Positions 13,788 to 43,980 of a DNA stretch of 48,537 nucleotides are shown here, one piece after another. The DNA is from Piscinibacter sp. GTDB lineage: Bacteria > Pseudomonadota > Gammaproteobacteria > Burkholderiales > Burkholderiaceae_C. The stretch covers positions 1 to 48,537 of the forward strand of contig DATFAY010000303.1 of NCBI GenBank assembly GCA_035254085.1. The letters run 5' to 3'. Every line of letters starts with the position of its first letter. Within the stretch, counting starts at the first letter, position 1. The position numbers and the translations under genes were made by a program. The notes under the pieces were generated by a model, which saw only the letters and a list, made by a program, of their open reading frames with translations, made no database searches and had not been told where the DNA came from.

Positions 13788-14001
13788 CGGAATGTGGCTC
13801 GTGAAAGCGCGCAGCTCGAGGGGGCCCATGCGCAAAGCCTTCTATTTTATGGCGTGAGGCCGCCGGCGATCTACGAGAGAGTCGCCGATGAAGGGCGCAC
13901 CCGCCGCGCTTGTCGGCCTCGTGCGCACGCGCAATCCGGCCGGTCGCGCGCCCAGGGCTGACGGCGCACCGTGCGGCGCGCCGGACATGACCGGCGGCGC
14001 C

Positions 14002-14130
14002 GTGCGGGAAGCTGCACGAGTCGCGCGGCGCCCCTTGCCCGGGCGCCGCGCGCCTTCCCAGGCAAATCAAGCAGTTGCAGCGCGTGCCATCGCTGCGCCG
14101 CCACGCGCGCGACGCTGGCATGTCTTTCGC
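14002..14130 (+). promoter_or_regulatory. Sigma-54 promoter module 1 (enhancer + IHF + -24/-12) of the virB3 operon
   Basis: GTGCGGGAAGCTGCAC 14002-14017; IHF-consensus AATCAAGCAGTTG 14065-14077; TGGCATGTCTTTCGC (GG-N10-GC) 14116-14130. Confidence 0.8.
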
Positions 14131-14168
14131 GAACACCGCCATGTCGCAAAACGCACCCGGAGCAGGGC

Positions 14169-14471
14169 ATGGCACACGACGCGCAGCAAAGCCTGCAGGA
14201 AGTGAAGATCTTCGCGCGGGAGAACACCATCTGGGGCATCCCCAGCAAGCAGTTCACCGGCGCGGGCGTGTTCACCATCGCGATGCTCACGCAGCTGCCG
14301 GTGTTCTTCGCGCTCGCGATGGGCGCGCTCATCTTCGGCGTGCTTTTCACCATCTACAACGACGACCCGCGCGCGCTCATCGCATGGCAGCGCTCGATCG
14401 GGCGGCCGGTGCGGTGGTCGGTGTGCCCGCGTCAGCCCAGGCAAGTCACCGTCCTTCCTTTCAAAGAGTGA
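14169..14471 (+). CDS. virB3: T4SS VirB3-like inner-membrane protein
   Basis: 100 aa; ...TIWGIP..., two hydrophobic helices, then DDP; adjacent to the pilin and VirB4. Confidence 0.7.
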   Translation: MAHDAQQSLQEVKIFARENTIWGIPSKQFTGAGVFTIAMLTQLPVFFALAMGALIFGVLFTIYNDDPRALIAWQRSIGRPVRWSVCPRQPRQVTVLPFKE

Positions 14472-14486
14472 GCACAAGGAGCCTCC

Positions 14487-14810
14487 ATGAAACCCCAGTT
14501 CAAGTCCACCCTTCGCGCGGCGTCGGCCGCGGCGAGCCTGAGCCTGCTCAGCGCCTCGGCCCGCGCCGCGGCGAACTTCGACTCGGTCACCGCCTTCCTG
14601 CAGAAATTCGCCGAGTTCATGGCCGGCCCCTTCGGCAAGGGCGTGGTCATCATCTCGATCATCGCGGCCTTCTGCACCTGGGTGTTCGCCCCGAAGGACG
14701 GCATCTTCGGCCCGGTGCTGCGCGTGGTCGTGGCCGGCATCGCCATCCTGAACGCGGCCACCTGGATGGGCCAGCTGGGTGCCGGCGGCGGCGTGAACCT
14801 GGGCGGCTGA
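14487..14810 (+). CDS. virB2: T4SS pilin, VirB2/TrbC family
   Basis: RBS AAGGAG; signal ending ARA; GPFGK followed by two hydrophobic helices, typical pilin layout. Confidence 0.8.
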   Translation: MKPQFKSTLRAASAAASLSLLSASARAAANFDSVTAFLQKFAEFMAGPFGKGVVIISIIAAFCTWVFAPKDGIFGPVLRVVVAGIAILNAATWMGQLGAGGGVNLGG

Positions 14811-14847: not shown

Positions 14848-17385
14848 ATGGGCGCCAGGGAGAAGATCGGCTCGGTGCTGGACCTGCACACCTGCTACGG
14901 CGTGTACAACGGCTTCGTGCTGACCAAGACCGGCTCGCTGATCGGCGGCATCGAGCTGTCGGGGCGCGACCCCGACGGCATGGCGCCCATCGATCACCAG
15001 GGCCTGATGCACATCGCGCGGGTGATCTACGGCAAGCTGCCGAAGAACGTATCGGTCACGCAGTACTACGCGCACTTCGAAGGCGCGCGGGTGTCGCTGG
15101 CGCAGCGCGAGCATCCGATCAGCAACCTGATGTCGCAGCGTCGCGCGCAGTTCCTCAACGGGCGCGAGCTGTGCAACTCGCGCCTGGTCCACTACTTCGA
15201 GATCCAGCCGCCCGAGAACACCAGCCGCCTCGACATCGCCGGCCTCGTCAAGCACCTGGTGATGTCGCCGGTGAACGCCGCCAGCCGCCAGGCCGTGCGC
15301 CAGACGCTGTCCAAGCAGGGCACGCTGCTGTTCATCGCCGAGCAGCTCGAGCGGCAATCGTGGGCGCTGCGCGATGCGATGTCGGTGCTGATCGCGAAGT
15401 GGTCCGGCATGATGGGCGTGGATCAGCTCGCCATCGACGAGCTGTGGGCGCACATGCGCTTCCTGGCCACCTTGCAGCCGCGCCGGCTCGACACCGCGCT
15501 GCTGGAGACGCCGCCCGCCAGCAACTGGGACCAGTTCCTCACCAGCGGTGAAGTGCGCCACCTGCGCGTGGCCAGCATGGACGTGCTCAAGGTCGACGAC
15601 GCCGAGCACCAGTACGTGAAGATCGGCGCCATCAGCCGCCTGGGCAGCCCCGTGCGCGAGGGCCTGTGGGGCAATGGCGAGGACTCGCCCGTGCGCCTGC
15701 GCGGCAACTACCTGCTGATGCACCGCTTCATGCCGTTCACCGAGTTCAAGCGCTCGATGCTGTTTCGCGCCAAGCAGACCGAACTCGAGCGCAGCGCGAT
15801 CAACCCGTGGGACGTCCTGCAGGGCCGAGAGCGCTCGCTGTACGAGAAGCAGCTCACCATGAAGCCCGCCATCGCCGACAAGATCGCCGAACTGGGCGAG
15901 GCCGAGGCGCTGGACGAGATCTGGGGCAACGGACACTGCTTCGTGGCCGCGTTCCATGCCGATCCCAAGCGGCTGCGCGACACGGTGCTGTCGCTCGACC
16001 GCGCCTGCTCCAACGCCGGCCTGTCGCTGGTGTGGGAAGGCGTGGACCTGCCCTACGCCTACCAGACGCTGCAGCCCGGCGGCCAGCACAAGAGCATGCG
16101 CGACATGGTGATGAACGGCACGCAAAGCGCCGCCGCTGCGCTGCTCTACCAGAGCGCGCTGGGCCAGCCGGTGGTGGAGGACCTGGGCAACGAAGAGGCG
16201 CAGTACATCCTCGAAAGCAGCGACGGGCGGCCCTTCTTCTTCAGCAACTTCATCGGCGGCCGCGCGATGCTGATCGGCATCGGCCCCATCCGCAGCGGCA
16301 AGACCTTCTTCAAGAACACGCTGGCCACGCATTTCCTGAAGTACGGCGGCGTGATCCGCGCCATCGACATCGATCCCGGCACCGAGACGCTTGCACAGGC
16401 CTTCGGCGCCGAGGGCGGCGTGTTCCGCGTCACGGCCGACGGCAGCAACGGGCTCAACCCGTTCGTCAACTACCAGGGCGAGGGCGACATCGGCTTCGTG
16501 GTCCACATGACCGAGCTGCTGGTGGAGATGATGCGCGCCAACGACGACCCGCTGCTGCAGCAGCTGGCGCACAACGAGCAGGAGTACCTCGACGGCGCGA
16601 TCCGCAAGACGCTGTTGCTGCCGCCCGAGATGCGCACGCTCGATTCGCTGGTGGCGCACATGCCGATGCAGCTGGCGCAGAAGTTCACGCGCTGGACCCG
16701 CGGAAACGATCCGCAGATGAGCGGCCGCTATGCGCCGCTGTTCGCCGCCGAGACCGACGCGGCGGGCGGCCTGGACAAGCGCGTGGCCGTCTACAACCTG
16801 CAGGCCGTGCGCGACGACGAGAACGCGATGCGCCCGCTGCTGCTCGAGCTGTTCTACCGCATCACGCGCGCCTTCGAAGACCCGCAGCGCCGCGGCATCC
16901 CGAAGGAGCTGCACGTCGACGAATGCCACCACGCGCTGCGGCTGAAGGCCTTCGCGGATTATCTGGTGGCCAAGGTGCGCACCTGGGGCAAGTGGGGCGC
17001 CGGCGTGCAGCTGTGGACGCAGTCGCCCGAGGAGCTGCTGCGCAGCGAGAGCTGGGCCGCGGTGCGCAGCGCGGCCAGCACCTTCGTCTTCATGTCGGAC
17101 CCGAAGATGGACGACGCCTTGTACTGCGAGACCTTCCCGTTCCTGCAGGCCGGCGAGTGCGAGGCCATCCGCTCCTTGATTCCCAAGCGCCAGGCCTTTG
17201 TGGTGCAGCAGGAGCTGGGCATCGCCAAGGTGGTGAACCTGGCGGTGGAGCCGGAGCAGTACGTGATGAACACCTCGCATCCGCGCGAGGCGGCGATCCG
17301 CAGCCGGCTGATCGAGGAGCATGGGTACGAGAAGGGCATGCGCCTGACCCTGCAGCGGTTTCGGGAGGAAGGGATCTTGAAATGA
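14848..17385 (+). CDS. virB4: T4SS ATPase VirB4/TrbE family
   Basis: 845 aa; N-terminal LTKTGSL..GIELSGRD, Walker A GPIRSGKT, GLNPF, Walker B HVDECH, WTQSP. Confidence 0.92.
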   Translation: MGAREKIGSVLDLHTCYGVYNGFVLTKTGSLIGGIELSGRDPDGMAPIDHQGLMHIARVIYGKLPKNVSVTQYYAHFEGARVSLAQREHPISNLMSQRRAQFLNGRELCNSRLVHYFEIQPPENTSRLDIAGLVKHLVMSPVNAASRQAVRQTLSKQGTLLFIAEQLERQSWALRDAMSVLIAKWSGMMGVDQLAIDELWAHMRFLATLQPRRLDTALLETPPASNWDQFLTSGEVRHLRVASMDVLKVDDAEHQYVKIGAISRLGSPVREGLWGNGEDSPVRLRGNYLLMHRFMPFTEFKRSMLFRAKQTELERSAINPWDVLQGRERSLYEKQLTMKPAIADKIAELGEAEALDEIWGNGHCFVAAFHADPKRLRDTVLSLDRACSNAGLSLVWEGVDLPYAYQTLQPGGQHKSMRDMVMNGTQSAAAALLYQSALGQPVVEDLGNEEAQYILESSDGRPFFFSNFIGGRAMLIGIGPIRSGKTFFKNTLATHFLKYGGVIRAIDIDPGTETLAQAFGAEGGVFRVTADGSNGLNPFVNYQGEGDIGFVVHMTELLVEMMRANDDPLLQQLAHNEQEYLDGAIRKTLLLPPEMRTLDSLVAHMPMQLAQKFTRWTRGNDPQMSGRYAPLFAAETDAAGGLDKRVAVYNLQAVRDDENAMRPLLLELFYRITRAFEDPQRRGIPKELHVDECHHALRLKAFADYLVAKVRTWGKWGAGVQLWTQSPEELLRSESWAAVRSAASTFVFMSDPKMDDALYCETFPFLQAGECEAIRSLIPKRQAFVVQQELGIAKVVNLAVEPEQYVMNTSHPREAAIRSRLIEEHGYEKGMRLTLQRFREEGILK

Positions 17386-18609: not shown

Positions 18610-19614
18610 ATGCCTCCTGTGCTGCCCGTCCCACCCAGGCTGCGAAGCCTGCTCGCGTGGCTGTTCCCCGGTCTGTTGCTCGTGGGATGGGCAGTACCCG
18701 CGCACGCGGCCTCGATGCCTGCACTGCACGAGATGTTCCTCGTGTTCGACCGCATCAACGACCAGATCACCAGCAGCGTGGGCACCGCGCTGGGCACCCG
18801 ACAGGTGGAGACGGTGGTCAACGTGCTGTTCAGCGCCCTGGCCATCGGCCTGTTCGTGTGGAAGTTCGCCGGCTTCGCGCTGCGTGGCTTCGACATGCTG
18901 GACCTGCTCACGCTGATGATGACGATCTTCTTCGTCTACATCCTGCTCACCAGCTACAAGGCCATCTTCCCGCCCATCCTCGATGGCGGCCGCTACGTGT
19001 CGGAGGTGCTGGGCCGCGGCATCGCGAACCGCGACGGCTCGGTGAGCCTGGCCGAGGCGACGTTTCGCATGCTGCTGCACTTCGACTTCAGCGCCGCATG
19101 CGGCGTCACCGATTGCCTGGGCTCGGGCTTTCTGGCGCTGCCCGGCGTGCTGGTGGCCTACGTGATGGTGCTGGCGCTGGGCATCATCGCCACGCTGGTC
19201 GAGCTGTGGACGATGTGGGGTTTCCAGATCGCCTATGCCGTCGGCTGGCTGACGATCCCGTTCCTGCTGTTCGAGCGCCTGTCCTTCCTGTTCGACGGCT
19301 GGCTGAAGTTCATCTTCGGCATGATCGTGTACGTCATCGTCGCCAAGATCAATCTCGCGCTCGTGCTGCTCGGCCTGGAGGTGATGTTCGGCGTCGGCGA
19401 CGTCGCCGACCAGACGGTGCAGGTGCACGGCTTCTTCGATGTCATCGGCCTGCTGGTGTTCATGGCGGTGGGCATCGCCACGCTGTATTCCACCGGCCGC
19501 TTCGCCTCGGCCATCGTCAGCTCCGCGGGCGGCGGCGGCATCGGTGAAATGGTGCAGAAGATGGCCAGCACCGCCGCCACCGTCGCGGGCGCCGCCGTGG
19601 CGCTGGCGCTGTAG
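18610..19614 (+). CDS. virB6: T4SS VirB6/TrbL-like polytopic membrane protein, copy 1
   Basis: GWLTIPFLLFERLSFLFDGWLKF, a VirB6-type motif; multiple TM helices. Start 18610 or 18490. Confidence 0.8.
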   Translation: MPPVLPVPPRLRSLLAWLFPGLLLVGWAVPAHAASMPALHEMFLVFDRINDQITSSVGTALGTRQVETVVNVLFSALAIGLFVWKFAGFALRGFDMLDLLTLMMTIFFVYILLTSYKAIFPPILDGGRYVSEVLGRGIANRDGSVSLAEATFRMLLHFDFSAACGVTDCLGSGFLALPGVLVAYVMVLALGIIATLVELWTMWGFQIAYAVGWLTIPFLLFERLSFLFDGWLKFIFGMIVYVIVAKINLALVLLGLEVMFGVGDVADQTVQVHGFFDVIGLLVFMAVGIATLYSTGRFASAIVSSAGGGGIGEMVQKMASTAATVAGAAVALAL

Positions 19615-19621
19615 GGCCGGC

Positions 19622-21073
19622 ATGGGCTGGCGGCTTCCGTCCCGGCGCGCCTGGACCCTGCTCGGCGCAGCCATCCTGCTGGGGATGGTGCTGGCCGCGC
19701 CGGCACATGCAGGTGTGCGCGACGCGTTCAACCAGATCGGCCGCTACGAGGACACCATCGTCCAGCGGGTGACCACGGTGGTGCAGGGCAGGGAGCTGCA
19801 GACGGTGGCGATGCGGCTGTTCGCCGTGCTCGCGCTGTCGCTGTTCATCCTGAAGTGCACGGGCTGGGCGCTGCGCGGCTTCCAGCTCGCGGACATGGTG
19901 CACACCATGATCCTCATCCTGATGACCGGTGCCATCCTGGCGGGCTACCCGAGCATCGTGTCGGCCATCTTCGACGCCACGCAGTACGTGGGGCAGGCGC
20001 TCCTCGCCGGCATCGCCGGCGTGCCGTTCTCCACCGCCGATCCGGCCGCGCTGCCCACCAAGCTGGTCCAGATGTTGTCGGGCATCGGCGACTCGGTGGT
20101 GGCCAACTGCTCGAGCAGCCTCCTTCACCCGCTGGCCTGCATCAAGGACGCCGTCGTCTCGCTCATCGTCGCGCTGGTGCTCTCGGTGGTGCTGGCGCTG
20201 CTGTGCATCATGATCATGGTGGTCGACATCTGGGGCTTCTGGCTGTATGCCATTGCGCTGGCCATCGGTCCCGTCATGCTGCCGTTCACGCTGTACAAGC
20301 GCCTCGCCTTCCTGTTCGACGGCGTGCTGCGCTTCTTCTTCGGGACGGTGATCTATGTCGTGATCGCGCACGTGAACCTCGGGTTGGTCGCAGTGGCCAT
20401 CCTCACGTCCCTCGGCGGCAGCGTGAGCGGGCTCATGTCGGGCTCGTTCACCGCGCCCACGCAGGCGCCGATCAACGACTTCGCCGACGTGGCCGGCCTG
20501 TTCCTGGTGTGCATCGTGGGCGTGTTCACGCTCGGCGCGACGGGCCGCTTCGCGAACTCGGTCATCAGCGGCGCGGTGGCCGAGGTGAGCTTCGGCAAGA
20601 TCGCGCAATCGGCCGTGCGCATCGTCGCATCGCCTGTGATCATCGCGGTCACCGGCGCGGTGCAAGGCGTGCGGGCGAAGAAGCAATCCAAGGCGAACAG
20701 CGGGCGCTCGCGTGAAGCACAGCGCCGCGACGGCGGTTCGGGCCACACGCGATCGAACAACTCGCGCCCCGGCAACTCGCCGCGACCGGCGACGGCGGGC
20801 ACGAGCGGCCGTGCGCACGCGCCGGGCCTGAGCTTCGGCGAGCGGCTGGGCGCCATGGGCAGCGGCGTGGCGCGCGCCTACCGCGATGCGGCGGTGAAGA
20901 CGCTGATGCGCAACCACGGTTTCCGGCGCGGCTACGACTTCGTCAAGCGCCGCGGCAACGGCGACGCGGGCTCGCAGGGCCGCCGCGCCGACCGCATGGG
21001 CGCGCAAAACGACGCCGACCGCCGCGCGCGCGACGAGGCCGATCGCCTGGCCGCCGCCGGGGGCGGCCCGTGA
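19622..21073 (+). CDS. virB6: T4SS VirB6/TrbL-like protein, copy 2, with basic C-terminal extension
   Basis: GPVMLPFTLYKRLAFLFDGVLRF; long Arg/Gly/Ser-rich tail. Confidence 0.8.
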   Translation: MGWRLPSRRAWTLLGAAILLGMVLAAPAHAGVRDAFNQIGRYEDTIVQRVTTVVQGRELQTVAMRLFAVLALSLFILKCTGWALRGFQLADMVHTMILILMTGAILAGYPSIVSAIFDATQYVGQALLAGIAGVPFSTADPAALPTKLVQMLSGIGDSVVANCSSSLLHPLACIKDAVVSLIVALVLSVVLALLCIMIMVVDIWGFWLYAIALAIGPVMLPFTLYKRLAFLFDGVLRFFFGTVIYVVIAHVNLGLVAVAILTSLGGSVSGLMSGSFTAPTQAPINDFADVAGLFLVCIVGVFTLGATGRFANSVISGAVAEVSFGKIAQSAVRIVASPVIIAVTGAVQGVRAKKQSKANSGRSREAQRRDGGSGHTRSNNSRPGNSPRPATAGTSGRAHAPGLSFGERLGAMGSGVARAYRDAAVKTLMRNHGFRRGYDFVKRRGNGDAGSQGRRADRMGAQNDADRRARDEADRLAAAGGGP

Positions 21074-22047
21074 CCGGGCCGGCCGGGGCGCGCCGCTGCA
21101 TCGCGCCGGCCTGCGCCCTCGCCTTCGCGTTGTGGAGCGCTCCGGCGCGCGCGGCCCAACTGCCCTGGCTGCACCAGATCTTCGTCTCGATGCAGGCGAC
21201 CAGCGACACGCTGGAGGCGAGCGTGCTGCGCGCCCTCGCGACGCACGAGGTGAACCTGGTCGTGAACGTGCTCTTCAGTGCGCTGGCGCTGTTCCTGTTC
21301 GTGTGGAAGTTCTCCGGCTTCGCGATGCGCGGCTTCGACCTGCTCGAGCTCCTCGAGCTGATGTTCACCATCTCGCTCGTGTACGTGCTGCTCACCGCGT
21401 ATCGAACGCTGATACCGGCGGTGGTGTCGGGCGGCCGCTTCATCGGCGATGCGCTGGGCACGGGCATCAGCCACGCGGACGGCAGCGCGACGCTGGCCGA
21501 ATCGATCTTCGGCACGCTGCTCGCGCTCAGCCTGCACCCGGTGTGCGACGGCGGCTTCTTCCATTGCCTCGGCCCCAACCTGCTGGCCATCCTGACCGTG
21601 GGCCTGGGGGACATCGCCATCCTGGCCATCGGCGCCGTCGCCACCATCGCCGAGGTGTGGATGAGCTGGTGCTCGCAGATCGCGTTCGCCATCGGCTGGC
21701 TGACGATCCCGTTCCTGCTGTACCGGCGCCTGTCGTTCCTCTTCGATGGCTGGCTGCGCTTCTTCTGCAGCGTGCTCATGTACGACATCATCGCCAAGGT
21801 GGCGCTGGCGATCGTGCTGCTCAGCATCAAGGTGATGCAGGACGACGCCCCCGGCTCCACCGGTGCCACCATCGACGTCCACACACCCTATGACCTGCTG
21901 GCGCTGATGCTGTTCATCATCGTGGGCTGCTTCGTCATCGGCTGCATCGGGCGCTTCGCGACGGTGGTGGTCAACGGCGTGCCCGGCATCGGCGGCGTGC
22001 TGCAGGACATGGCGCGCGGCGCGGCGCGTTCGTTCGGCAGCCGCTGA
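21070..22047 (+). CDS. virB6: T4SS VirB6/TrbL-like protein, copy 3
   Basis: GTGA overlap; GWLTIPFLLYRRLSFLFDGWLRF; closely similar to copy 1. Confidence 0.8.
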   Translation: MTGPAGARRCIAPACALAFALWSAPARAAQLPWLHQIFVSMQATSDTLEASVLRALATHEVNLVVNVLFSALALFLFVWKFSGFAMRGFDLLELLELMFTISLVYVLLTAYRTLIPAVVSGGRFIGDALGTGISHADGSATLAESIFGTLLALSLHPVCDGGFFHCLGPNLLAILTVGLGDIAILAIGAVATIAEVWMSWCSQIAFAIGWLTIPFLLYRRLSFLFDGWLRFFCSVLMYDIIAKVALAIVLLSIKVMQDDAPGSTGATIDVHTPYDLLALMLFIIVGCFVIGCIGRFATVVVNGVPGIGGVLQDMARGAARSFGSR

Positions 22048-22054
22048 GCAACGC

Positions 22055-22204
22055 GTGCGGGATGTCGCACGCGCGGGGCGGCGTGCTTGCGTGAAGACGC
22101 ACGGTGCAGCAGCCAGGCGGTTCGGCCGCCACGCCTGGGCAGCACGTGGAATCAAGCACTTGCGCGAATTGCCGTTCCAGTCGGTGCCTTGGCACGACTC
22201 TCGC
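22055..22204 (+). promoter_or_regulatory. Sigma-54 promoter module 2 (tandem enhancers + IHF + -24/-12) of the CHAP-sigma operon
   Basis: GTGCGGGATGTCGCAC 22055-22070 and TTGCGTGAAGACGCAC 22087-22102; IHF AATCAAGCACTTG 22150-22162; TGGCACGACTCTCGC 22190-22204. Confidence 0.85.
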
Positions 22205-22241: not shown

Positions 22242-23060
22242 ATGTCAACTGAGTTCCACCACGCTCATCCACCACGCAGCCGCGCGCTTGCGAAGACGCT
22301 GGCGTGTCTGGCCGTGGCGCTGTTCGCGGCGCTGCCGCAATGGGCCTCGGCCTTCGCCTGCGGCGATGCGCCGTCGGCGTATTTCGACGGCAACGGCGGC
22401 TTCGAGAGCTTCAACGACCCGAGCGGCTACCCCGTCTTCAACAAGAACCACTGCTACGGCAACCCGATCTTCTCGACCACCGGACGCGACACCTACACCA
22501 GCAATCCCTACGGCAACCGCGTCATGACCAACAGCGGCTTCGGCTACCAGTGCTTCGAGCTGGCCGAACGCTACTTCCTGTTCAAGTACAACAAGCGCAT
22601 CCGCGGTGAAGCGGCGGCCGACATGTGCGGCAACGCGCTGCCCAGCGGCGTGAAGCGCCTGTTCCCGGGGAGCGGCATGCCGGTGCCCGGCGACCTGTTC
22701 GTGTTCGGGCGCGGCAGCTGTGGCGCGAGCCCGCAATGGGGCCACATCGCCGTGATCACCAAGGTGTGGAATTCGGGCAGCGTGCAGATCGCGCAGCAGA
22801 ACATGCGCAGCGAGAAGTACACCATCGCCAACGTGAAGTCGTCGTGCGCCTGCGCCTATCTGCATGCCACCGACAACCTGGCGGCCAACGGGCCGCCCGT
22901 GGACACGCCGGCCGACGCGTGGGAGCCGGGCCGCGACGGCGGCGAGGATGGTCCGGAGCAGACCAACGGCGGCAACCTGATCGACGACCCGGGCAATACC
23001 TGTCACTGCACCTCGAGCGACCCACTGAGCGTGTGGCCGATGTGCTGCAAGAAGAAGTGA
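22242..23060 (+). CDS. Secreted CHAP-domain amidase/peptidase
   Basis: RBS GGAGG; signal peptide ending ASA; GYQCFELAERY (catalytic Cys), PVPGDLFVF, WGHIAVI (His), AQQN. Confidence 0.85.
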   Translation: MSTEFHHAHPPRSRALAKTLACLAVALFAALPQWASAFACGDAPSAYFDGNGGFESFNDPSGYPVFNKNHCYGNPIFSTTGRDTYTSNPYGNRVMTNSGFGYQCFELAERYFLFKYNKRIRGEAAADMCGNALPSGVKRLFPGSGMPVPGDLFVFGRGSCGASPQWGHIAVITKVWNSGSVQIAQQNMRSEKYTIANVKSSCACAYLHATDNLAANGPPVDTPADAWEPGRDGGEDGPEQTNGGNLIDDPGNTCHCTSSDPLSVWPMCCKKK

Positions 23061-23070: not shown

Positions 23071-23568
23071 ATGACCGAGTTCTTCGCAAGCTTCTCGCGC
23101 ACGGCCGAGCGCCGCACGTCCACGCACATCGGCGCAATGGTGCGCTGGTGCGCCATCGGCACGCTGGCCGCGCTGGCCGCTGCCGCTGCGTCGGTGCCGC
23201 GCCCGGCATGGGCGCTGCCGGCGGACACGGCTTCGCCGGATGCACCCGCGGCTGCCTCGGCACCCAACCGGCTCAAGGTCGGCACGCGGGTCGACTTCGA
23301 TCCGCGCCGCGGCACGGTCGGCGATGCGATCGGCTTCCTGCTCGAGCCCGTGCACTATCACCTGACCATGCGCACGGTCGACCCGCTGATCAGTTCGGCG
23401 GTGCTGCGCCGCCCGGTGCCGGCCATCGCCGCCCATGCCGGCGTGATGAGCATCGAGTCGGCGCTCCTGCTGCTCATCGGCGACGAAAACCGGCTGGTGG
23501 TCGACCACGCGAACCGGCTGATCGCCATCGAGCGCCTGCCCGCCGGCAGCAGCGCCGCCACGCCATGA
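23071..23568 (+). CDS. Periplasmic PilL-like / N0(STN)-like small domain protein
   Basis: Signal-like segment ending AWA; TVGDAIGFLL...Y.L...G.MSIESAL.LL.G...LVVD...R.I recalls PFGI-1-class ICE PilL C-terminal domains (from memory, unverified). Confidence 0.6.
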   Translation: MTEFFASFSRTAERRTSTHIGAMVRWCAIGTLAALAAAAASVPRPAWALPADTASPDAPAAASAPNRLKVGTRVDFDPRRGTVGDAIGFLLEPVHYHLTMRTVDPLISSAVLRRPVPAIAAHAGVMSIESALLLLIGDENRLVVDHANRLIAIERLPAGSSAATP

Positions 23569-24714: not shown

Positions 24715-26106
<1,392 letters not shown>

Positions 26107-26143: not shown

Positions 26144-26157
26144 TACGAGATCTCGTA
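26144..26157. promoter_or_regulatory. Perfect 14-bp palindrome in the divergent promoter region
   Basis: TACGAGATCTCGTA, immediately upstream of the activator's -35 box. Confidence 0.5.
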
Positions 26158-32481: not shown

Positions 32482-32483
32482 GC

Positions 32484-33563: not shown

Positions 33564-33566
33564 CCC

Positions 33567-34631
33567 ATGGCGCAGATGCCCGCACCGCCGCCCGCGCCGT
33601 CGTTCGCCGAGCGCTGGCGCCGCACGCTGTTCGGCGACATGCCGTCGGCGATCGTCTCGAGCATGCTGCTGCTCGGCCTGGCGTGGGCCGCGTGGCAGGC
33701 CATCCGCTGGGGCGCGCTGGATGCCGTGGTGCAGCCCGACCCGGCCGCGTGCCGCGCCGCCGGCGGCGCGTGCTGGGGCGTCATCGTCGAGAAGCACCGC
33801 CTGGTGCTGCTCGGGCGCTTCCCGGCCGACGAGCGCTGGCGGCCCGTCGTCGCCAGCATCGGGCTGCTGGGCGCAGTGGGTGCGGCGGCCCACCCGCGCT
33901 GCTTCGGGCGCATCGGACTGCTGCTGCTCCTTGCGGGCTCGGCGCTGTTCTTCGTGCTGATGAGCGGCGGCGTGCTCGGGCTGTCCGCGGTCAGCAGCGA
34001 CCTGTGGGGCGGCCTGCCGCTGACGCTCTTTCTCGCCCTCGTGGCCTGCCTGCTGGGCGTGCCGCTGGGCATCGCGCTGGCGCTGGCGCGGCGCTCCGGA
34101 CTGCCGGCGCTGCGCTGGCTGGCCGGGGGCTACATCGAAGGCGTGCGCGGCGTGCCGCTGATCACGCTGCTGTTCTTCGGCGCCTTCGTCGTGCCGCTGG
34201 TTCTGCCCCCGCAATGGCGGCTCGACCCCATGCTGCGCATCGGCGTGTGCCTCACGATGTTCTGCTCCGCCTACCTTGCCGAAGTGTTCCGCGGCGGCCT
34301 GCAGGCGGTGCCGCGCGGGCAGCTCGAAGCCGCGCATGCCCTCGGCCTGAACCGCTGGCAGACGCTCACGCGCGTGGTGCTGCCGCAGGCGCTGCGCATC
34401 ACCATCGCGCCCACCACCAACAACTTCATCGGCGCGGTGAAGGACACCTCGCTGGTGGCCATCGTCAACATCTACGACATGACCGGCACGCTGCGCCTGG
34501 CCATGAGCGACCCGCAGTGGCAGCCCTTCTTCGTCGAGATGTACCTGGTGGTGAGCGCCGTCTACCTCGCGATCGGCATGTCGATCGCGCAATACGGCCG
34601 CTACCTGACGCGCCGCTACGCCTTGAGATGA
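33567..34631 (+). CDS. aapM: Amino acid ABC transporter permease
   Basis: GACW, WGGLPLTL, RGVPLIT.LF, AEVFRGGLQA, KDTSLV. Confidence 0.9.
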   Translation: MAQMPAPPPAPSFAERWRRTLFGDMPSAIVSSMLLLGLAWAAWQAIRWGALDAVVQPDPAACRAAGGACWGVIVEKHRLVLLGRFPADERWRPVVASIGLLGAVGAAAHPRCFGRIGLLLLLAGSALFFVLMSGGVLGLSAVSSDLWGGLPLTLFLALVACLLGVPLGIALALARRSGLPALRWLAGGYIEGVRGVPLITLLFFGAFVVPLVLPPQWRLDPMLRIGVCLTMFCSAYLAEVFRGGLQAVPRGQLEAAHALGLNRWQTLTRVVLPQALRITIAPTTNNFIGAVKDTSLVAIVNIYDMTGTLRLAMSDPQWQPFFVEMYLVVSAVYLAIGMSIAQYGRYLTRRYALR

Positions 34632-34639
34632 ACCACTCC

Positions 34640-34716
34640 CGAAGCGCCTCCGGCGCTCCCCCTCAAGGCGGCGCCGCCAGCGGACCGGCGAAGCCGGCTC
34701 CGCGGCGTCCGCTTGA
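34640..34716. repeat. REP/MITE-like palindromic element within the aap operon
   Basis: Nested imperfect inverted repeats (TCAAG...CTTGA enclosing CCGGC-gaa-GCCGG) in a 140-bp gap of an otherwise compact operon. Confidence 0.4.
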
Positions 34717-34772
34717 TGCGTCGCGCTCGTGTGCTCGCGGCTGCCGCTTCGGCGACATGGAGAACTGAACGA

Positions 34773-35516
34773 ATGAACGCAAGCAACATCCTGCTGTCCG
34801 TCGAGGGCATGCACAAATGGTTCGGCGGCTTCCACGCGCTGGACGACTGCCACCTGCACGTCGCGCCCGGCGAGAAGATCGTCATCTGCGGGCCCTCGGG
34901 CTCGGGCAAGTCGACGCTGATCCGCTGCGTGAATGCGATCGAGCGCCACGATGGCGGGCGCATCGTTTTCGACGGCGTGCCGCTCGACGATTCGCGCGAG
35001 GCCATCCGTGCGCGCAAGGGCATCGGCATGGTGTTCCAGCAGTTCAACCTGTTCCCGCACCTGAAGGTGCTCGACAACGTGATGCTCGCGCCCCTGCTGG
35101 TCAAGCGGCAGGACGTCAACGTGTCACGCCAGCAGGCGATGGAATTGCTCGATCGGGTGCGCATTGCCGAGCAGGCGCACAAGTTTCCAGGGCAGCTCTC
35201 CGGCGGGCAGCAGCAGCGGGTGGCGATCGCCCGCGCGCTGGCCATGCAGCCGCAGCTCATGCTGTTCGACGAGCCGACTTCCGCGCTCGATCCCGAGATG
35301 GTGGGCGAGGTGCTCGAGACGATGCAGGAGCTCGCGCGCGACGGCATGACCATGATCGTCGTGACGCACGAGATGGGCTTCGCACGCCGCGTTGCGGACC
35401 GGGTCGTGTTCATGGAGGCCGGGCGCATCGTCGAGGTCCAGCAGCCCCAGCGCTTCTTCGACCAGCCGCACAGCGAGCGCACCCGCGCCTTCCTCGGAAA
35501 AATCCTCACCCACTGA
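34773..35516 (+). CDS. aapP: Amino acid ABC transporter ATP-binding protein
   Basis: [48 protein letters not shown]. Confidence 0.93.
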
Positions 35517-35518
35517 CC

Positions 35519-36466
35519 ATGAGCCTTCCTTTTGCTTTCGCGCTGCATGGCGGTGCCGGCACCATCGCGCCCACCCATCCGCAGGCCGAGGCGCCCTATC
35601 ACGAAGCGCTGCGCGCCGCGACGGCGCGCGCCCTGGCCGTGCTCGCGGCCGACGGGTCCTCGCTCGACGCCGTGGTCGAGGCGGTGGCTGCGCTGGAAGA
35701 CTGCCCGCTCTTCAATGCCGGCCATGGCGCCGTGTTCTGCGCCGACGGCGGCCACGAACTCGACGCCGGCGTGATGGACGGCCGCACGCTCGCCGCGGGC
35801 GGCGTGGCTGGCGTTCGCACGGTGCGCAACCCGGTGCGCGCCGCGCTCGAGCTCATGTACGAGGGCCGCTGCGTGCTGATGGGCGCCGACGCCGCCGAGC
35901 GCCTGGCCGCCGAGCGCGGGCTGGACATCGTCGAGCCCGGCTACTTCTCCACCGCGCACCGCCTGGCCCAGCTGCGCGAGGTGCAGGCCAGGCGCGGCGG
36001 GCTCGCCGCGCTCGACCATGACCGTGAGCCCGAGGACGCCGACAGCCCGCACCGCTTCGGCACGGTGGGCGCGGTGGCGCGTGACCGCCATGGACACCTC
36101 GCAGCCGCCACCTCGACCGGCGGCATGACCAACAAGCCGCCGGGGCGCATCGGCGACAGCCCGATCGTCGGCGCCGGCGTCTACGCCAACGACGCGACCT
36201 GCGCCGTGTCGTGCACCGGCACGGGCGAGCACTTCATCCGCGCCTGCCTCGGTCACGATGTGCACGCGCGCATGCGCTACGGGCAGCAGGGCACTTTCCT
36301 GGCGGCGCACGAGGCTCTCGCGCAGACGCTCGGGCCGCTGGGCGGCCGCGGCGGCATGGTGGTGGTCGGCCGCGACGGCCAGATCGCCATGCCCTTCAAC
36401 TCGCGCGGCATGTACCGCGCGTGGGTGCGCGAGGGCGACGACGTGCGCACCGCCATCTTTGCCTGA
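35519..36466 (+). CDS. iaaA: Isoaspartyl peptidase/L-asparaginase (Ntn hydrolase)
   Basis: ALHGGAG, LEDCPLFNAG.G, GTVGAVA (Thr nucleophile), TSTGG, GRIGDSP, TGTGE. Confidence 0.93.
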   Translation: MSLPFAFALHGGAGTIAPTHPQAEAPYHEALRAATARALAVLAADGSSLDAVVEAVAALEDCPLFNAGHGAVFCADGGHELDAGVMDGRTLAAGGVAGVRTVRNPVRAALELMYEGRCVLMGADAAERLAAERGLDIVEPGYFSTAHRLAQLREVQARRGGLAALDHDREPEDADSPHRFGTVGAVARDRHGHLAAATSTGGMTNKPPGRIGDSPIVGAGVYANDATCAVSCTGTGEHFIRACLGHDVHARMRYGQQGTFLAAHEALAQTLGPLGGRGGMVVVGRDGQIAMPFNSRGMYRAWVREGDDVRTAIFA

Positions 36467-36502: not shown

Positions 36503-36644
36503 GTGCGGGAAGTCGCACATCCGGCCGCAGGTGAGCGCCGCCCTCGGGCTCACTGACCAGCGCGTAAGCGCTTGATCCGCCACTGGTTTCGACTCCACAG
36601 CAAGTGGAACGCGGCGCTGCGGCCGAAATGGCATCACGGTTGCA
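36503..36644 (+). promoter_or_regulatory. Sigma-54 promoter module 3 (enhancer + IHF + -24/-12) of the virB8 operon
   Basis: GTGCGGGAAGTCGCAC 36503-36518; reversed IHF-like GATCAAGCGCTTA (36577-36565); TGGCATCACGGTTGCA 36629-36644. Confidence 0.85.
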
Positions 36645-36689: not shown

Positions 36690-37556
36690 ATGTCCCTGTT
36701 CAACCTGCCCCGAGCGCACCGCGCCGGCCAGATCGCTGCCAAGCGCGCCGCGAACGCCCGGCCGGCCACGGACACGCGCCACGGCGAGGACGGCATGGTC
36801 CCCGAGGCCATCATCGCGAAGGTGCGCGCGCAGTCGCGCTTCGACCAACTCGCCGGCGTGACGGCCGACCGCGCGCGCTGGTTCGTCGCCTTCCTCATCC
36901 TCGGCGGCATCGCGCTGTTCTCCGCGCTCGGCTGGTACGTGGCCGACGCGCGCTTCGCCGACAACGTGCGAGTGGCGTGGGTCAAGCTCGATCCGTCGGG
37001 CGCCTACACCGTGCAGTTCGCCGACGACGTGCGCCCGGTCGAGTTCTTCCAGACCACGCTCGAATCGAAGCTCAGCGAAGTGGTGGAAAAGCGCTACCGC
37101 AAGAACGCGGCGACGATCACCGCCGACTACCGCTTCGTCGGCTTCTTCCTCTCGCCCAAGCTGGCCGCCCAGTTTCTGAGCGTGGACGACTACAACGCCG
37201 CGCGCGTGGCCGCCGAGCTCACCGAATGCAAGGGCCGCTGCCTCGAGCGCGACGTCAAGGTGCGAGTGGTGCAGCACCGCACGCAGGCCCCGCTGCGCAT
37301 CCCGGACCATGCCAACTCCACGCTGTACGAGACGCTGGTGTTCACCACCTTCACCGAGCGCAAGCCCGACGGCACGGTGGCCGACCGGCGCAACGCGATC
37401 GTGCAGATGGCCTGGCGCATCAAGGGCAAGGACGAGATCGTCTCCAACAAGGCGGCGCTGACCGCCAACCCCCTGGGCATCGAGATCCTCTCGCTCGACC
37501 TCAAGGAAGACCCGACGCCGGTGCCGCGCGATGACAAGAGCGCGCAAGGCGGATGA
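36690..37556 (+). CDS. virB8: T4SS VirB8/TrbF-like protein
   Basis: Single TM helix, periplasmic domain, C-terminal NPLGIEI motif. Confidence 0.8.
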   Translation: MSLFNLPRAHRAGQIAAKRAANARPATDTRHGEDGMVPEAIIAKVRAQSRFDQLAGVTADRARWFVAFLILGGIALFSALGWYVADARFADNVRVAWVKLDPSGAYTVQFADDVRPVEFFQTTLESKLSEVVEKRYRKNAATITADYRFVGFFLSPKLAAQFLSVDDYNAARVAAELTECKGRCLERDVKVRVVQHRTQAPLRIPDHANSTLYETLVFTTFTERKPDGTVADRRNAIVQMAWRIKGKDEIVSNKAALTANPLGIEILSLDLKEDPTPVPRDDKSAQGG

Positions 37557-41001: not shown

Positions 41002-41012
41002 ACCGCCGATCC

Positions 41013-42074
41013 ATGAGCGCCGACCCGCAAAGCCCGCAAGCCCAGAGCGCCGTCAAGCTGCAGTGGGAGCTGGTGCGCCACTACCTGACGCCGATCGCCC
41101 CCTACTTCCGGCTCGAGGGCGTGACGGGCATCTTCGTCAACCGCTTCGACAGCGTCTACATCATGCGGCGCGGCGAGTTCGAGGCGGTGCCGGCGCGCTG
41201 GAACAGCGAGTTCCACTTCGTGACGGCGATCGAGCAGATCGCCAATGCGCTGGGCCAGGAGGTGCATGCCATCGAACGGCCGCTGCTCGACGCGCGGCTG
41301 GACGACGGCTCGCGCATCAACGCGGTGCTGGCGCCCACCGGCGTGGCGGGCAGCAACATGACGGTGCGGCTGTTTCCGAAGACGCGCTACACCGCGCAGG
41401 CCCTGATGGAGACCGGCTCGTTCGACGCGGCGATGTGCGCCTACCTGCGCCTGGCCATGCTCAATCGCTTCAACGTGCTGGTGTCGGGCGGCACGGGCAG
41501 CGGCAAGACGACGCTGCTCAACGCGGTGTCCAACTTCATTCCGCCGGACGACCGCATCATCAGCATCGAGGACACCGCCGAGCTGCAGATCGACAGCTCG
41601 CACTGGGTGGCGCTGGAGGCGCCGCACCGCTTCGTGAAGGACGTGGAGCCGCTGACCATGAGCCGGCTGGTGAAGAATGCGCTGCGCATGGAGCCCGAGC
41701 GCCTCATCATCGGCGAGGTGCGCGACGGTGCCGCCGCCGAGGCGCTGCTCACCGCGGCCAACACCGGACACTCGGGCATCTTGTCGACCATCCACGCCAA
41801 CAATGCGCACGACACCATCGACCGGCTGACCAACCTGGCCGCCGCCGGCTTCTCGGCGATTCCCTACGAGCATGTGCAGCGGCAGGTGCGCAAGAACCTC
41901 GACGTGATCGTGCACGCGCAGAAGACGCCGCGCCACGGCCGGCGCATCGTCGAGATCGCGGAGCTCGACGACGGCGAGTTCAGGCTGCTGTGGCGCTGGG
42001 ACTACCGCGCCGGCCGGCACGAGCAGGTGGCCCAGCCGTCCACGAGGCGCATGCACTACACCCCCGAGGAGTGA
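41013..42074 (+). CDS. virB11: Secretion ATPase VirB11/TrbB/CpaF family
   Basis: DARLDDGSRINAV, GGTGSGKTT, IEDTAEL (Asp box), ALRMEPERLIIGEVR, NTGH.G.LSTIHAN (His box). Confidence 0.92.
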   Translation: MSADPQSPQAQSAVKLQWELVRHYLTPIAPYFRLEGVTGIFVNRFDSVYIMRRGEFEAVPARWNSEFHFVTAIEQIANALGQEVHAIERPLLDARLDDGSRINAVLAPTGVAGSNMTVRLFPKTRYTAQALMETGSFDAAMCAYLRLAMLNRFNVLVSGGTGSGKTTLLNAVSNFIPPDDRIISIEDTAELQIDSSHWVALEAPHRFVKDVEPLTMSRLVKNALRMEPERLIIGEVRDGAAAEALLTAANTGHSGILSTIHANNAHDTIDRLTNLAAAGFSAIPYEHVQRQVRKNLDVIVHAQKTPRHGRRIVEIAELDDGEFRLLWRWDYRAGRHEQVAQPSTRRMHYTPEE

Positions 42075-42084
42075 CGACGGCACC

Positions 42085-43980
42085 ATGGACTCGGTGAGCC
42101 TGGCCTTGAACCACGACATCATCGCGGCGATGCGCTGGTCCACGCCCTGGTGGTGGGTGGCATGCGCCGTCGCGCTGACCACGCTGGCGCTGATCAACGT
42201 GCTGCCGCTGCGCGTGCCGCCGGCCAAGGAAGCGGAATACGGCCTGACCGAGGTGCTGAAGATCGGCCTTCGCAAGCTGGCGGTGCTGTCGCTCGTGCTG
42301 CTGGTCTTCGTGTACTGGCCCGCGATGTACTTCGGGACCGTGGCCGCGCTCGGCTCCACCGCAGGCCAGGGGCATGCCTGGTTCATGGACTACGTCGGCC
42401 GGCAGGCGCGCACCTGGGGCTGGCTGCTGCCGGCCGGCGTGGCGGCGGGGCTGGCCGCACGCGTGCTCACCGCCCGCTACCTCACGCCCTGGGTGTCGAG
42501 GATCGTGCAGCGCTTCATCGTGCGCCAGGAAGACCACAAGCAAAGCGACATGCGCGATGAGGTGGGCAAGCTCAAGCCGCGCGACTTCTCGCCGCGCAAA
42601 TACCATCGCCCGGGCCAGATCTTCCTGGGGCTCGATGTGCAGGGCCAGCCGGCCTACCTCGACGCCGCGCTGTTTCGCGCGACGCACATGCAGGTGGTGG
42701 GCCCGACGCGCTTCGGCAAGGGCGTGCTGCTGGGCGTGATGCTCGAGCAGGCCATCGCGCAAGGGCACAGCGTGGTGTACGTGGACCCCAAGGCCGATGC
42801 CTTCCTGCCCTACATCCTGGCCGAGGCCTGCGAGCGCGCGGGGCAGCGCTTCATCTACATCGACCTCGGCAGCGAAGACACCCGCTGGGCCCCCTTCGAA
42901 GGCGGCAGCGAGCGCGACCGGCGCTCGCGCATCTGCAGCTGCTTCGGCCTGAACAACACCGGCGACGGCTCCGACTTCTACAAGTCGCGCGAGCGCGCCA
43001 TCCTGGACACCGTCATGCCGCGCTCGGGCACCAGCATCGCCGGGCTGCGCGCCGCGCTCGAGCAGCGCGGCGAGGACGGCAAGCCGCTGAAGGAAAGCGC
43101 GAGCCGGCTCTACGACAACCTGGTCGAGTTCGGCGCGCTGCCGTCGCTGAACCCGAAGAAGGGCGGCGGCAACAAGATCGGCGAGGCGCTCAAGGCCGGC
43201 GCCAGCATCTACGTGCGCGGCTCGCTGGACGACCCGACCATCCGGCGCGCCTCGCTCGCGTTCATCAGCGAAGTGCTGCAGGAGACGCGCCGCCTGGCGG
43301 CCGAGCGCAAGACGCATCTCACGCTGGCGATCGACGAGCTGAAGTTCATGATCTCGCAGGAGGTGAGCGACGCCTTGGCCACCATCGCGGGCTTCAAGGC
43401 CAACATGGTCTTGCTGCACCAGTCCATCCGCGACCTGCGAGGGCCGGAGGACCGCACGCTGAACGTGAATGCGCTGGAGTCGGGCGTGGTGGTGAACTGC
43501 CAGGTCAAGCTGCTGTACCGCGCCTCCGACCCGGAGACGGCCGAGTGGGCCAGCCTGCTGTCGGGCACGAAGATCGTGCGCACCACGAAATCGGCCACCG
43601 TGGAATACAACCGCTTCGGCGGCGAGGCCTACACGCCCAAGCGCATGGTGTACGACCTGGAGGTGCCGATCATTTCGCAAAACGAACTGCTCAGCCTTTC
43701 GCCACGGGTCGGCGTGCTGTTCGCACCAGACCGCTTGGCCAGCGTGCTGTACACCTGCCACGTGCCGGCGGACACGCAGCGCCTGTTGTATCGGCGGCCG
43801 CAGGAGAAGCCGGCGGCAGTGGCTGCTGCGCGCGCTGCTCCAGCGGGCTCACTTGCGCAATTGGTGACTGGCGGCACTGCTCGAACGAATGCAGCGGCGC
43901 CACACGGAGAATCGCCAATGGATCAGCAAAAGGCCACATCGCCTGCGTCGTTGAGTCCGACGGCGTCGAGCACCCAGTAG
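42085..43980 (+). CDS. virD4: Type IV coupling protein (VirD4/TraD/MobB-like)
   Basis: N-terminal TM helices; IFLGLD; Walker A GPTRFGKG; VDPKAD; Walker B AIDE; HQS; DPETAEWAS.LSG. Confidence 0.88.
   Translation: MDSVSLALNHDIIAAMRWSTPWWWVACAVALTTLALINVLPLRVPPAKEAEYGLTEVLKIGLRKLAVLSLVLLVFVYWPAMYFGTVAALGSTAGQGHAWFMDYVGRQARTWGWLLPAGVAAGLAARVLTARYLTPWVSRIVQRFIVRQEDHKQSDMRDEVGKLKPRDFSPRKYHRPGQIFLGLDVQGQPAYLDAALFRATHMQVVGPTRFGKGVLLGVMLEQAIAQGHSVVYVDPKADAFLPYILAEACERAGQRFIYIDLGSEDTRWAPFEGGSERDRRSRICSCFGLNNTGDGSDFYKSRERAILDTVMPRSGTSIAGLRAALEQRGEDGKPLKESASRLYDNLVEFGALPSLNPKKGGGNKIGEALKAGASIYVRGSLDDPTIRRASLAFISEVLQETRRLAAERKTHLTLAIDELKFMISQEVSDALATIAGFKANMVLLHQSIRDLRGPEDRTLNVNALESGVVVNCQVKLLYRASDPETAEWASLLSGTKIVRTTKSATVEYNRFGGEAYTPKRMVYDLEVPIISQNELLSLSPRVGVLFAPDRLASVLYTCHVPADTQRLLYRRPQEKPAAVAAARAAPAGSLAQLVTGGTARTNAAAPHGESPMDQQKATSPASLSPTASSTQ

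Follow-up and report, generated by a model that had tools for sequence, protein, structure and literature searches.

What does a type IV secretion system (T4SS) carry when it has kept its coupling protein and has no relaxase beside it? The question is raised by a 48,537-nucleotide stretch of DNA from Piscinibacter sp. (NCBI GenBank assembly GCA_035254085.1, contig DATFAY010000303.1), a whole contig (C303) of the source genome G000 and referred to here as the window. It holds a VirB/D4-type T4SS, a sigma54 activator, a sigma factor and, between the modules of the machine, a set of metabolic genes. The system is a chromosomal T4SS without a cognate relaxase. Its private sigma factor is predicted to transcribe single-gene cassettes that encode a synthase and an exporter, and these match an importer and a hydrolase in the same cluster. 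The reading tentatively preferred here, which falls somewhat short of an even chance, is an opine-like system in which the T4SS would deliver cassette products to neighbouring microbes.

The middle of the cluster, from 26.3 to 36.5 kb, consists of four cassettes and an operon:

26214..27067 (+): cassette 1, with a box (26214-26241), a histidine-phosphatase-like open reading frame (ORF; 26322-26969) and a terminator (27029-27067)
27072..27894 (+): cassette 2, with a box (27072-27099), an ORF of unknown family ending at 27806 and a terminator (27853-27894)
27931..29080 (+): cassette 3, with a box (27931-27958), an EamA-type exporter gene (28052-29038; TTG start and a very strong Shine-Dalgarno (SD) site) and a 3' hairpin
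29219..30525 (+): cassette 4, with a box (29219-29246), an LdmS-like ATP-grasp ligase gene (about 29338-30444) and a terminator (about 30488-30525)
30548..36466 (+): uptake/catabolism operon encoding an RpiR regulator, an amino-acid ATP-binding cassette (ABC) binding protein, two permeases, an ATPase and an isoaspartyl peptidase/asparaginase

The ligase of cassette 4 is rare (13 matches among 7496 candidates), keeps the catalytic E-x-N-x-R motif and yields a model with a predicted local distance difference test score (pLDDT) of 88.6. It is closest to LdmS, the L-aspartate-L-methionine ligase of Staphylococcus aureus, by its features, its fold (7r8q, E 7e-13, TM-score 0.67) and its sequence profile (E 1.6e-10), whereas the two are only about 15% identical and differ in genetic context. 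The Asn-Gly-Ser residues of LdmS align in the window ligase; the available text on LdmS assigns them to aspartate binding and gives alpha-Asp-Met as the product (PMC9486568). Distant homologues of the ligase occur in 10 of the 399 other genomes of the class that were scored, and they stand directly beside an isoaspartyl peptidase in all nine loci examined, which marks ligase and hydrolase as a pair. These nine gammaproteobacterial loci (L144-L152; L-numbers denote fetched loci), with an LdmS-like ligase followed by an isoaspartyl peptidase, form an undescribed synthesis/hydrolysis pair, perhaps used for storage. In the window, a predicted exporter (hhalign 79% to a Pfam-EamA protein) and a predicted importer are placed between ligase and hydrolase, and the parts are under different control. 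The importer follows the ligase: its binding protein (84-85% identity) is present in three of 27 Rhizobacter-genus genomes, the very three with the ligase, and in the own genus only homologues of 43-61% are found, in 7 of 15 genomes. Of the first two cassettes, the ORF of cassette 1 matches His_Phos_1 at E 0.025 with its RHG motif changed to REG, and that of cassette 2 has a homologue with the same box (27-28%) in G041; neither window ORF (26322 and 27231) aligned with clear phosphatases.

In other strains, unrelated predicted synthase/exporter sets are swapped in under the same box. The comparison uses genomes of relatives that bear the cluster (G041-G044 and G047). In G043 and G044 a boxed orphan enzyme and an EamA protein have a LysR regulator and a homologue of N-formylglutamate amidohydrolase as neighbours; in G043 a TctC receptor was identified as well. 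The boxed genes of G044 and G041 include glucose-6-phosphate dehydrogenase-like, phosphatase and polytopic proteins, and G041 has 17 boxed genes in all; for a second polytopic family, in G041 and G044, EamA identity was not shown. The orphan enzyme of G043 and G044 (c80) resisted assignment, with a failed model (pLDDT 35) and no PDB or Pfam match apart from a weak GNAT match in a distant homologue; by eye only, it might be an N-acyltransferase. Protein translocation, contact-dependent interaction and DNA exchange had been proposed as outputs in a preliminary description made from the letters alone, a list that missed this dominant logic of synthase and exporter matched to importer and hydrolase.

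What ties the cassettes to the machine is the box, TTG(A/C)C-N17-TANACC with 16 bp between the hexamers, which lies upstream of genes between the T4SS modules and is absent before the T4SS structural operons. A matrix trained on 24 sites from four relatives, and on no window sites, ranks the window sites at 27929, 29217, 26212 and 27070 as first, second, third and fifth among 17 matches in G000; the fourth is groES (score 18.9), so that the box overlaps RpoH-like sites. The strict pattern occurs in five of 27 Rhizobacter-genus genomes, exactly the T4SS carriers (three of these five contributed to the pattern), with all nine matches inside clusters and a single match for the reversed control. 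A housekeeping or heat-shock promoter was rejected as an identity for the box, since the strict pattern is absent from the 22 T4SS-free genomes. Among 32 cargo genes, 28 have their own box, and other spacer lengths score worse for all 28 in a test that is partly circular. The shared boxes and the joint travel with the T4SS place the middle region within the system, as a predicted sigma regulon and a matched uptake operon; the ordinary catabolic genes that had been thought to split the machine are thus no such thing.

The candidate reader of the box is the RpoS-like sigma factor encoded in the cluster, distinct from the chromosomal RpoS, a separate gene on contig C140. Region 4.2, which reads the -35 element, is kept, region 3 is shortened, and regions 2.1 and 2.4 carry invariant changes. 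Those in region 2.1 (Asn to His and Arg to Gly in the alignment) may alter the -7 pocket. At the sequence level, the sigma gene sits in an operon under a sigma54 promoter with a cluster-encoded activator. The private sigma factor is predicted to read the box and transcribe the cassettes.

The tier above is formed by sigma54 promoters, which bear out the earlier division of the machine into three operons:

14002..14130 (+): sigma54 promoter 1 (virB3), with a palindrome (14002-14017), an integration host factor (IHF) consensus (14065-14077) and a -24/-12 site (14116-14130)
22055..22204 (+): sigma54 promoter 2 (CHAP gene), with a palindrome (22055-22070), an IHF consensus (22150-22162) and a -24/-12 site (22190-22204)
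36503..36643 (+): sigma54 promoter 3 (virB8), with a palindrome (36503-36518) and a -24/-12 site (36629-36643)
26144..26157: palindrome before the activator gene, conserved in relatives and possibly a LuxR-type or autoregulatory box

The palindromes at the three promoters are of the type GTGCG-N6-(C/T)GCAC, lie 114-135 bp upstream of the -24/-12 site and resemble DctD-type sites. In G000 such pairs of sigma54 site and palindrome occur in the window only (three real and one shadow, against 0.34 expected from 222 and 90 single sites), with both patterns tuned on these very sites. The layout of promoter 1 is also found before virB3 in relatives, and the pairs recur there, including before pilL where pilL heads its own operon. 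An exact IHF consensus stands between palindrome and -24/-12 site at 12 of 27 listed sites, compared with 23 sites genome-wide. rpoN was found in all five genomes searched (G000 and G041-G044), and as a side observation each has two to three rpoN genes (on C270 and C578 in G000). The activator, whose receiver domain is atypical in that the phospho-acceptor position varies in the alignment, has no kinase gene in the cluster; we infer that it turns on the T4SS operons and the sigma factor. A LuxR with an autoinducer-binding domain adjoins the cluster in G041-G044 and G047, and the G000 orthologue lies on a separate contig of about 2 kb (C490). Separately, this LuxR solo is linked to an extracytoplasmic function (ECF) sigma factor (C490; L097:13014-19401), whose gene is followed by two Ser/Thr kinase genes in G042, where the LuxR stands beside virB3. 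The embedded activator and sigma factor of the preliminary description are thus supported by family matches and a conserved promoter architecture; no evidence for a developmental programme was found at the locus.

The machine itself was identified by Pfam and NCBIfam matches to VirB2, VirB4, three VirB6 proteins, VirB8-11 and the coupling protein. Its genes and the two regulators are as follows:

14169..14471 (+): virB3, one transmembrane segment, assigned from its position and from its homologues on plasmids, which are annotated tivB3
14487..14810 (+): virB2 pilin, PF04956 (TrbC), E 1e-11
14848..17385 (+): virB4 ATPase, TIGR00929 (E 5e-37, far below the cut-off), a member of the IncP-11/MOBC-plasmid family
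17382..18485 (+): secreted helical protein in the B5 position, fast evolving (39-45% to orthologues)
18610..22047 (+): virB6 triplet (18610-19614; 19622-21073, with a long basic tail; 21070-22047), PF04610 (TrbL/VirB6) in each
22242..23060 (+): secreted CHAP amidase, PF05257, E 2e-9, Cys and His motifs found
23071..23568 (+): PilL-like protein, TIGR03748, E 2e-9, below the cut-off; the plasmid family keeps it after virB10
23584..23781 (+): small lipoprotein, candidate VirB7, with a lipobox-like Cys; a similar ORF lies between pilL and the sigma gene in relatives
23819..24664 (+): RpoS-like sigma factor gene, start uncertain
24715..26106 (-): sigma54 enhancer-binding activator, PF00158, E 9e-63
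36690..37556 (+): virB8, PF04335
37553..38587 (+): virB9, PF03524
38584..40020 (+): virB10, PF03743
40060..41001 (+): membrane protein fused to a DUF4124-like domain (named by eye), encoded by two genes in relatives
41013..42074 (+): virB11-type ATPase, for which a TadA-family model scores higher
42085..43980 (+): coupling protein, 76-79% conserved within the clade, no relaxase beside it

The near-complete VirB/D4 set proposed earlier stands for the components named by family matches. VirB3 has no Pfam or family match and is placed by position and homology; its gene starts at 14169, the earlier start at 13971 being a mechanical GTG ORF start. The ORF in the B5 position has a signal-like N-terminus and shows no link to the B5-slot protein of the plasmid family (hhalign probability 0.3%); it and the small lipoprotein are candidates for VirB5 and VirB7 by position alone, without a profile link. 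That lipoprotein, the PilL-like gene and the membrane/DUF4124-like gene had all been overlooked. Walker A motifs are intact in VirB4, the VirB11-type ATPase and the coupling protein, and the GC content is flat across the cluster (66-75%). The virB6 triplet is kept in six of six close loci. As had been noted, the CHAP amidase takes the place of VirB1: no lytic transglycosylase was found in the window, whereas plasmid relatives have an SLT gene. Three variations in relatives may be mentioned here. In L014 (16824-18421) a HipBA-type toxin-antitoxin pair is inserted at the junction of virB6 and the CHAP gene. The coupling protein has a long Pro/Ala-rich C-terminus in two relatives (L096:143-2773 and L105:4477-7311; 876 and 944 aa in total) and almost none in two others. 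A small conserved protein, ribbon-helix-helix (RHH)-like by eye, is encoded in relatives' clusters (L010:18393-18749, L098:16739-16951, L103:218-538, L106:2762-3142) and was not found in G000.

No relaxase, integrase, replication or partition gene was called in 13971-43980, in agreement with the preliminary description, and no integrase/att repeats or rep/par genes in or beside the cluster in the window and in the stretches of G041-G044, G047 and G064. No tRNA was found in the window, nor T-DNA (transferred DNA) borders or a VirD2-type relaxase. Nine relaxase models run on five genomes (G000 and G041-G044) gave no relaxase near the cluster (PF11843 and PF13814 without a positive control; MOBV not searched), and the MobC models had no match in any of the five. 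A PF13814 match in G000 was discarded, being below the cut-off and falling on a small regulator-like gene. G041 matches no relaxase model at all, G042 has one distant c32-type match only, and MOBH genes occur in G043 and G044 only, far from the cluster. G000 does carry a MOBF relaxase on contig C140, where it has a coupling protein to itself and an integrase-like gene; the region (C140:30631-36976, L135), with an RHH-like gene and no mating-pair genes, is an integrative mobilisable element. An identity as an integrative and conjugative element or a plasmid was rejected, as no cognate relaxase (among the nine models), integrase/att, rep/par or tRNA was found. To the right of the cluster, lower-GC DNA (44612-48514) with a helix-turn-helix gene paired with a DUF6036 nucleotidyltransferase gene, kptA and tniQ forms the edge of a Tn7-like element. 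Concerning the cluster as cargo of such an element, end repeats were not found and the relatives are without it.

The origin of the machine is likely a MOBC conjugative plasmid. Among 7995 scored candidates, 86 VirB4 homologues were found: a close group at 80-90%, and the others at 55% or less. Species genomes, when scanned, yielded 79 VirB4 loci, and 142 plasmids match VirB4 at E <1e-100. Six close loci (84-86%) belong to Caldimonas mangrovi and five Rhizobacter records. Distant loci, including Vibrio, Pseudomonas, Pantoea and Nitrospirales, have the order B3-B2-B4-(B5)-B6-B8-B9-B10-PilL, and many contain ParA/B, SSB, antirestriction, RadC, topoisomerase or SLT genes. In a FastTree phylogeny of 66 sequences with seven outgroups, built after removal of 20 redundant loci and fragments <690 aa, the window VirB4 clade has support 1.0 and falls inside the IncP-11/MOBC plasmid family, with weak sister relations. 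Several loci of this family have a MobC-type relaxase gene just before virB11, divergent from the coupling protein gene; NF041423 (MobC) matched, below its cut-off, in five of five distant loci tested, and a MobC profile matched 12 distant loci, eight of them in its training set. The MobC-bearing relatives include RP1-1 (the IncP-11 archetype), Drgb7 (typed MOBC) and the Eleftheria terrae plasmid NZ_CP106950 (VirB4 44.6%). RP1-1 is reported, in the part of the preprint that is accessible, to be IncP-11 and self-transmissible (bioRxiv 10.1101/2024.09.03.610885). With these plasmids the window shares VirB4 at 36-45%, the virB3-virB2-virB4 order, VirB8-B11, a TadA-like VirB11, a PilL-like gene and the coupling-protein family. 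It differs in that it is chromosomal and lacks MobC, rep, par and ssb, has three virB6 genes, CHAP instead of SLT and rearranged modules, and has gained a sigma54 activator, a private sigma factor and metabolic cassettes. The preliminary description was to be refuted by a VirB4 of a characterised class with the same regulators already described. This applies in part: the family includes the self-transmissible RP1-1, but no sigma or activator homologue was found in plasmid-family loci.

Domestication on the chromosome, as first suggested, is backed by the relatives, in which the three modules (B3 to the B6 triplet and CHAP; PilL, lipoprotein and sigma facing the activator; B8 to the coupling protein) are shuffled and lie among different chromosomal genes. 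The distribution is patchy: one of 16 own-genus genomes, five of 27 Rhizobacter-genus genomes and two of a family sample of 401 (G000 included). Near-identical DNA is present in soil and rhizosphere metagenomes (sequencing runs X1-X3, of which X1 may be the source), and the carriers include cultured root and sediment isolates, so that the system is directly testable. The VirB4 family also includes a V. tapetis subspecies locus (L056), which is not the sequence of the studied strain CECT4600. The chromosomal VirB/D4 system of Vibrio tapetis is tied to virulence in the available portions of two reports (PMC5825899, PMC8116749). Three further observations concern the wider family. Chromosome-scale Gammaproteobacteria assemblies (L024-L042, L057, L058, L077, L087) have a T4SS of this family with pil-like genes behind it, and the flanks retrieved contain neither a relaxase nor a coupling protein, which may reflect a second domestication. 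A family of about 260 aa without Pfam, NCBIfam or PDB match occupies the MobC slot before virB11 in eight loci and occurs also in L060 and L142 (members include L022:6845-7657, L025:6301-7107, L063:7208-7954, L073:5523-6512 and L142:1339-2220); by profile it is unrelated to MobC, and it is a candidate unrecognised relaxase or replication protein. In L085 and L086 the T4SS region appears twice in one Pseudomonas plasmid record, possibly as an assembly duplication.

What, then, might this machine carry? Delivery in the manner of an opine system is favoured because the conserved coupling protein, kept although no relaxase model matches near the cluster, must have something to transport, and no regulon other than the boxed genes was found. 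Moreover, a cell that made, exported, re-imported and hydrolysed one amide would run a futile cycle unless production and consumption were separated, between cells or in time. In the proposed sequence of events, the activator would switch on the machine and the sigma factor, which would then transcribe the cassettes. The CHAP amidase would open the wall, and the T4SS would carry the cassette products into the cell that has been contacted. The contacted cell would make an aspartyl amide from its own amino acids and export it, and the owner would import and hydrolyse the amide made by its neighbour.

The form in which the products might travel is suggested by the expression signals of the cassettes. 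The best SD pairing of 31 cassettes has a median of -11.5 kcal/mol, with 15 at -12 or below, compared with medians of -6.6 for 449 operon-first genes of G000 (2.4% at -12 or below), and, within the same clusters, -7.4 for T4SS/regulator genes (85) and -6.4 for uptake/regulator genes (31); the anti-SD sequence was assumed (the 16S 3' end was not found in G000) and the predicted starts were chosen by best SD. The compared cassette genes are kin, and the p of about 1e-13 is overstated because of this. GTG or TTG is the start codon in 24 of the 31. Gram-positive ribosomes tolerate such codons when a strong SD site precedes them. An intrinsic terminator was found after 11 of 31 cassettes and after 16 of 93 genes of the background; each of the four cassettes in the window ends in a strong hairpin. 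Leaders are more structured than their shuffles (median z -2.1 in 35, against -0.03 in 120 background and +1.2 in 24 sigma54 leaders). In 27 of 29 leaders a 5' stem starts no more than 4 nt from the predicted start (background 76 of 173), and when folding is started at shifts of -1 and 0 the counts are 27 and 26 of 29, falling to 5-16 at shifts of >=5 nt. In addition, ligase and exporter diverge to 33-55%, like the B5-position protein, whereas identities stay at 76-88% for the binding protein, VirB4, VirB11 and the coupling protein.

Nucleic acid as the transported form would suit the foreign-looking ribosome sites, the hairpins at the ends, the lack of a protein signal and a polytopic cargo, and mRNA in particular would suit a donor-encoded sigma factor together with the missing relaxase; as the simplest case, mRNA would fit the translation signals and hairpins better than protein. 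The fully specified version is a long shot: the private sigma factor would produce hairpin-capped single-gene mRNAs that combine strong ribosome-binding sites with weak start codons, and an orphaned coupling protein would pump them into neighbours, which would translate synthase and exporter and feed the donor. Transcripts of the cassettes may exist in soil. Near-identical RNA contigs cover cassettes 3 and 4 (three runs from two studies) and, in run X4, also cassette 1 (26355-26914), and they start at 27976 and 29281/29284, 11 and about 30 nt past the predicted starts. They are a weak hint of expression because the runs were found using this region. Among the matches listed for X4, X8 and X20, no near-identical piece of at least 150 nt lies on the uptake operon or on virB8-virD4, which ranks nothing, as the runs were found using 22-31 kb. 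Runs X16 and X18 have scattered short pieces across the cluster, and in DNA run X3 the read depth does not rise over the cassettes.

Several results weigh against the predicted delivery into neighbours: neither a relaxase nor a border repeat was seen, nor a protein that could pilot DNA or RNA, and the literature search surfaced no paper on RNA transfer via a coupling-protein T4SS. As proteins, the cassette products show no positive C-terminal T4SS signal (mean net charge +0.69 for 32 cassette proteins versus +0.64 for 1691 background genes), and a polytopic exporter is a hard protein substrate for transfer. A first test of hairpin position was null (7 of 29, with upstream promoter DNA folded along). 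Total matches of the box matrix in G000 are no higher than those of shuffled matrices (17/11/6/3 versus 24/12/6/1.6), so that location alone is informative, and in G041 regulator genes lie among the cassettes. The product, too, is only loosely constrained, as LdmS makes alpha-Asp-Met and the hydrolase family is named beta-aspartyl peptidase. Known loci also show such genes without delivery: the accessible text on rhizopine loci has NifA-controlled synthesis and linked catabolism alone (PMC6668481), and HrpL regulons, in the portion of the source at hand, include non-secreted metabolic genes (PMC8228185).

The strongest rival is a rhizopine-like or signalling programme within the owner, which is possible if somewhat less probable. 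Cells with the T4SS switched on would themselves produce the aspartyl amide and release it, as food for kin or as a signal, while the T4SS would attach to a host or inject other proteins, for example the degenerate phosphatase-like products. Besides the NifA-controlled precedent, which the source describes in its available part (PMC6668481), the cassette proteins are without a secretion signal, RNA-run contigs over the cassettes come from soil, and LuxR lies beside the cluster in G041-G044 and G047, with the palindrome before the activator gene; the G000 orthologue of this LuxR, however, is on another 2 kb contig. The programme would also leave unexplained why strong SD sites and GTG/TTG starts are confined to boxed genes, why the steps of one pathway are laid out as single-gene cassettes, and why these diverge fast while the importer is conserved.

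Antagonism by protein injection is unlikely. The boxed genes would then be toxic effectors (metabolite-draining enzymes or leak channels) and product uptake a side benefit, a view suited by the wiring from activator to private sigma factor as in HrpRS-HrpL, by the co-regulated CHAP amidase and by the expanded, paralogous and fast-evolving boxed repertoire of G041. Yet no immunity-like partner genes were seen, Pfam scans gave no known toxin or XVIPCD domain, the C-terminal signal is missing and the importer tracks the ligase. The least probable reading is a residual mating apparatus that mobilises DNA in trans (such as the MOBF element on C140) or the cluster itself, with the cargo merely co-regulated, which a plasmid-family machine with an intact coupling protein, a patchy distribution over chromosomal sites that differ by lineage and the MOBF relaxase of G000 would favour, whereas no relaxase type is common to the carriers (MOBV not searched) and the C140 element has its own coupling protein.

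Read cautiously, the cluster plainly shows a conjugation machine that has been put to a new use on the chromosome. A complete predicted cascade (activator, palindrome, IHF, sigma54, private sigma factor, private box) picks out the cargo in each genome, and this cargo does not resemble toxins: its synthase-plus-exporter cassettes can be exchanged for one another, have private importers to match and bear bacterial expression signals. The sigma/box pair may serve as an orthogonal expression tool. If the opine-like delivery is true, it would be categorically new, a form of parasitism in which one bacterium forces others to cross-feed it, possibly by way of a T4SS able to transfer RNA or membrane proteins; an mRNA injector would amount to a crown-gall strategy practised among bacteria, with no genes handed over.

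No description of this system surfaced in a literature search (supplements and most subscription papers were outside its scope), and each known system resembles it in part. Xanthomonas-type XVIPCD effectors with immunity genes had no Pfam match among the window and cassette proteins scanned, a search that did not extend to the whole genome. The type III secretion system of Pseudomonas syringae, as far as the available text goes, is switched on by the HrpRS enhancer-binding protein and sigma54 through a cluster-encoded HrpL with its own box (PMC8228185). In the window, by contrast, the sigma factor is RpoS-like rather than ECF, the structural operons are directly under sigma54, the box is on cargo cassettes only, and the machine is a T4SS. 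In the rhizopine mos/moc loci of Sinorhizobium meliloti L5-30, synthesis and a transporter are under NifA with the catabolism genes linked, according to the accessible part of the paper (PMC6668481). The window differs in a second, interposed sigma factor, in its predicted amino-acid amide chemistry and in being built into a T4SS; no mos/moc families (inosamine chemistry) were found among its proteins. The Ti (tumour-inducing) plasmid differs in other ways: the window lacks VirD2 and border repeats, and its cassettes come with bacterial promoters, SD sites and terminators and are interleaved with T4SS genes. The opine system of Agrobacterium links a T4SS to interchangeable synthase and export genes and to a matched ABC importer, catabolic enzyme and regulator. 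What the window has in common with it is a genetic match: synthase and export genes on one side, and the importer and catabolic enzyme that correspond to them on the other.

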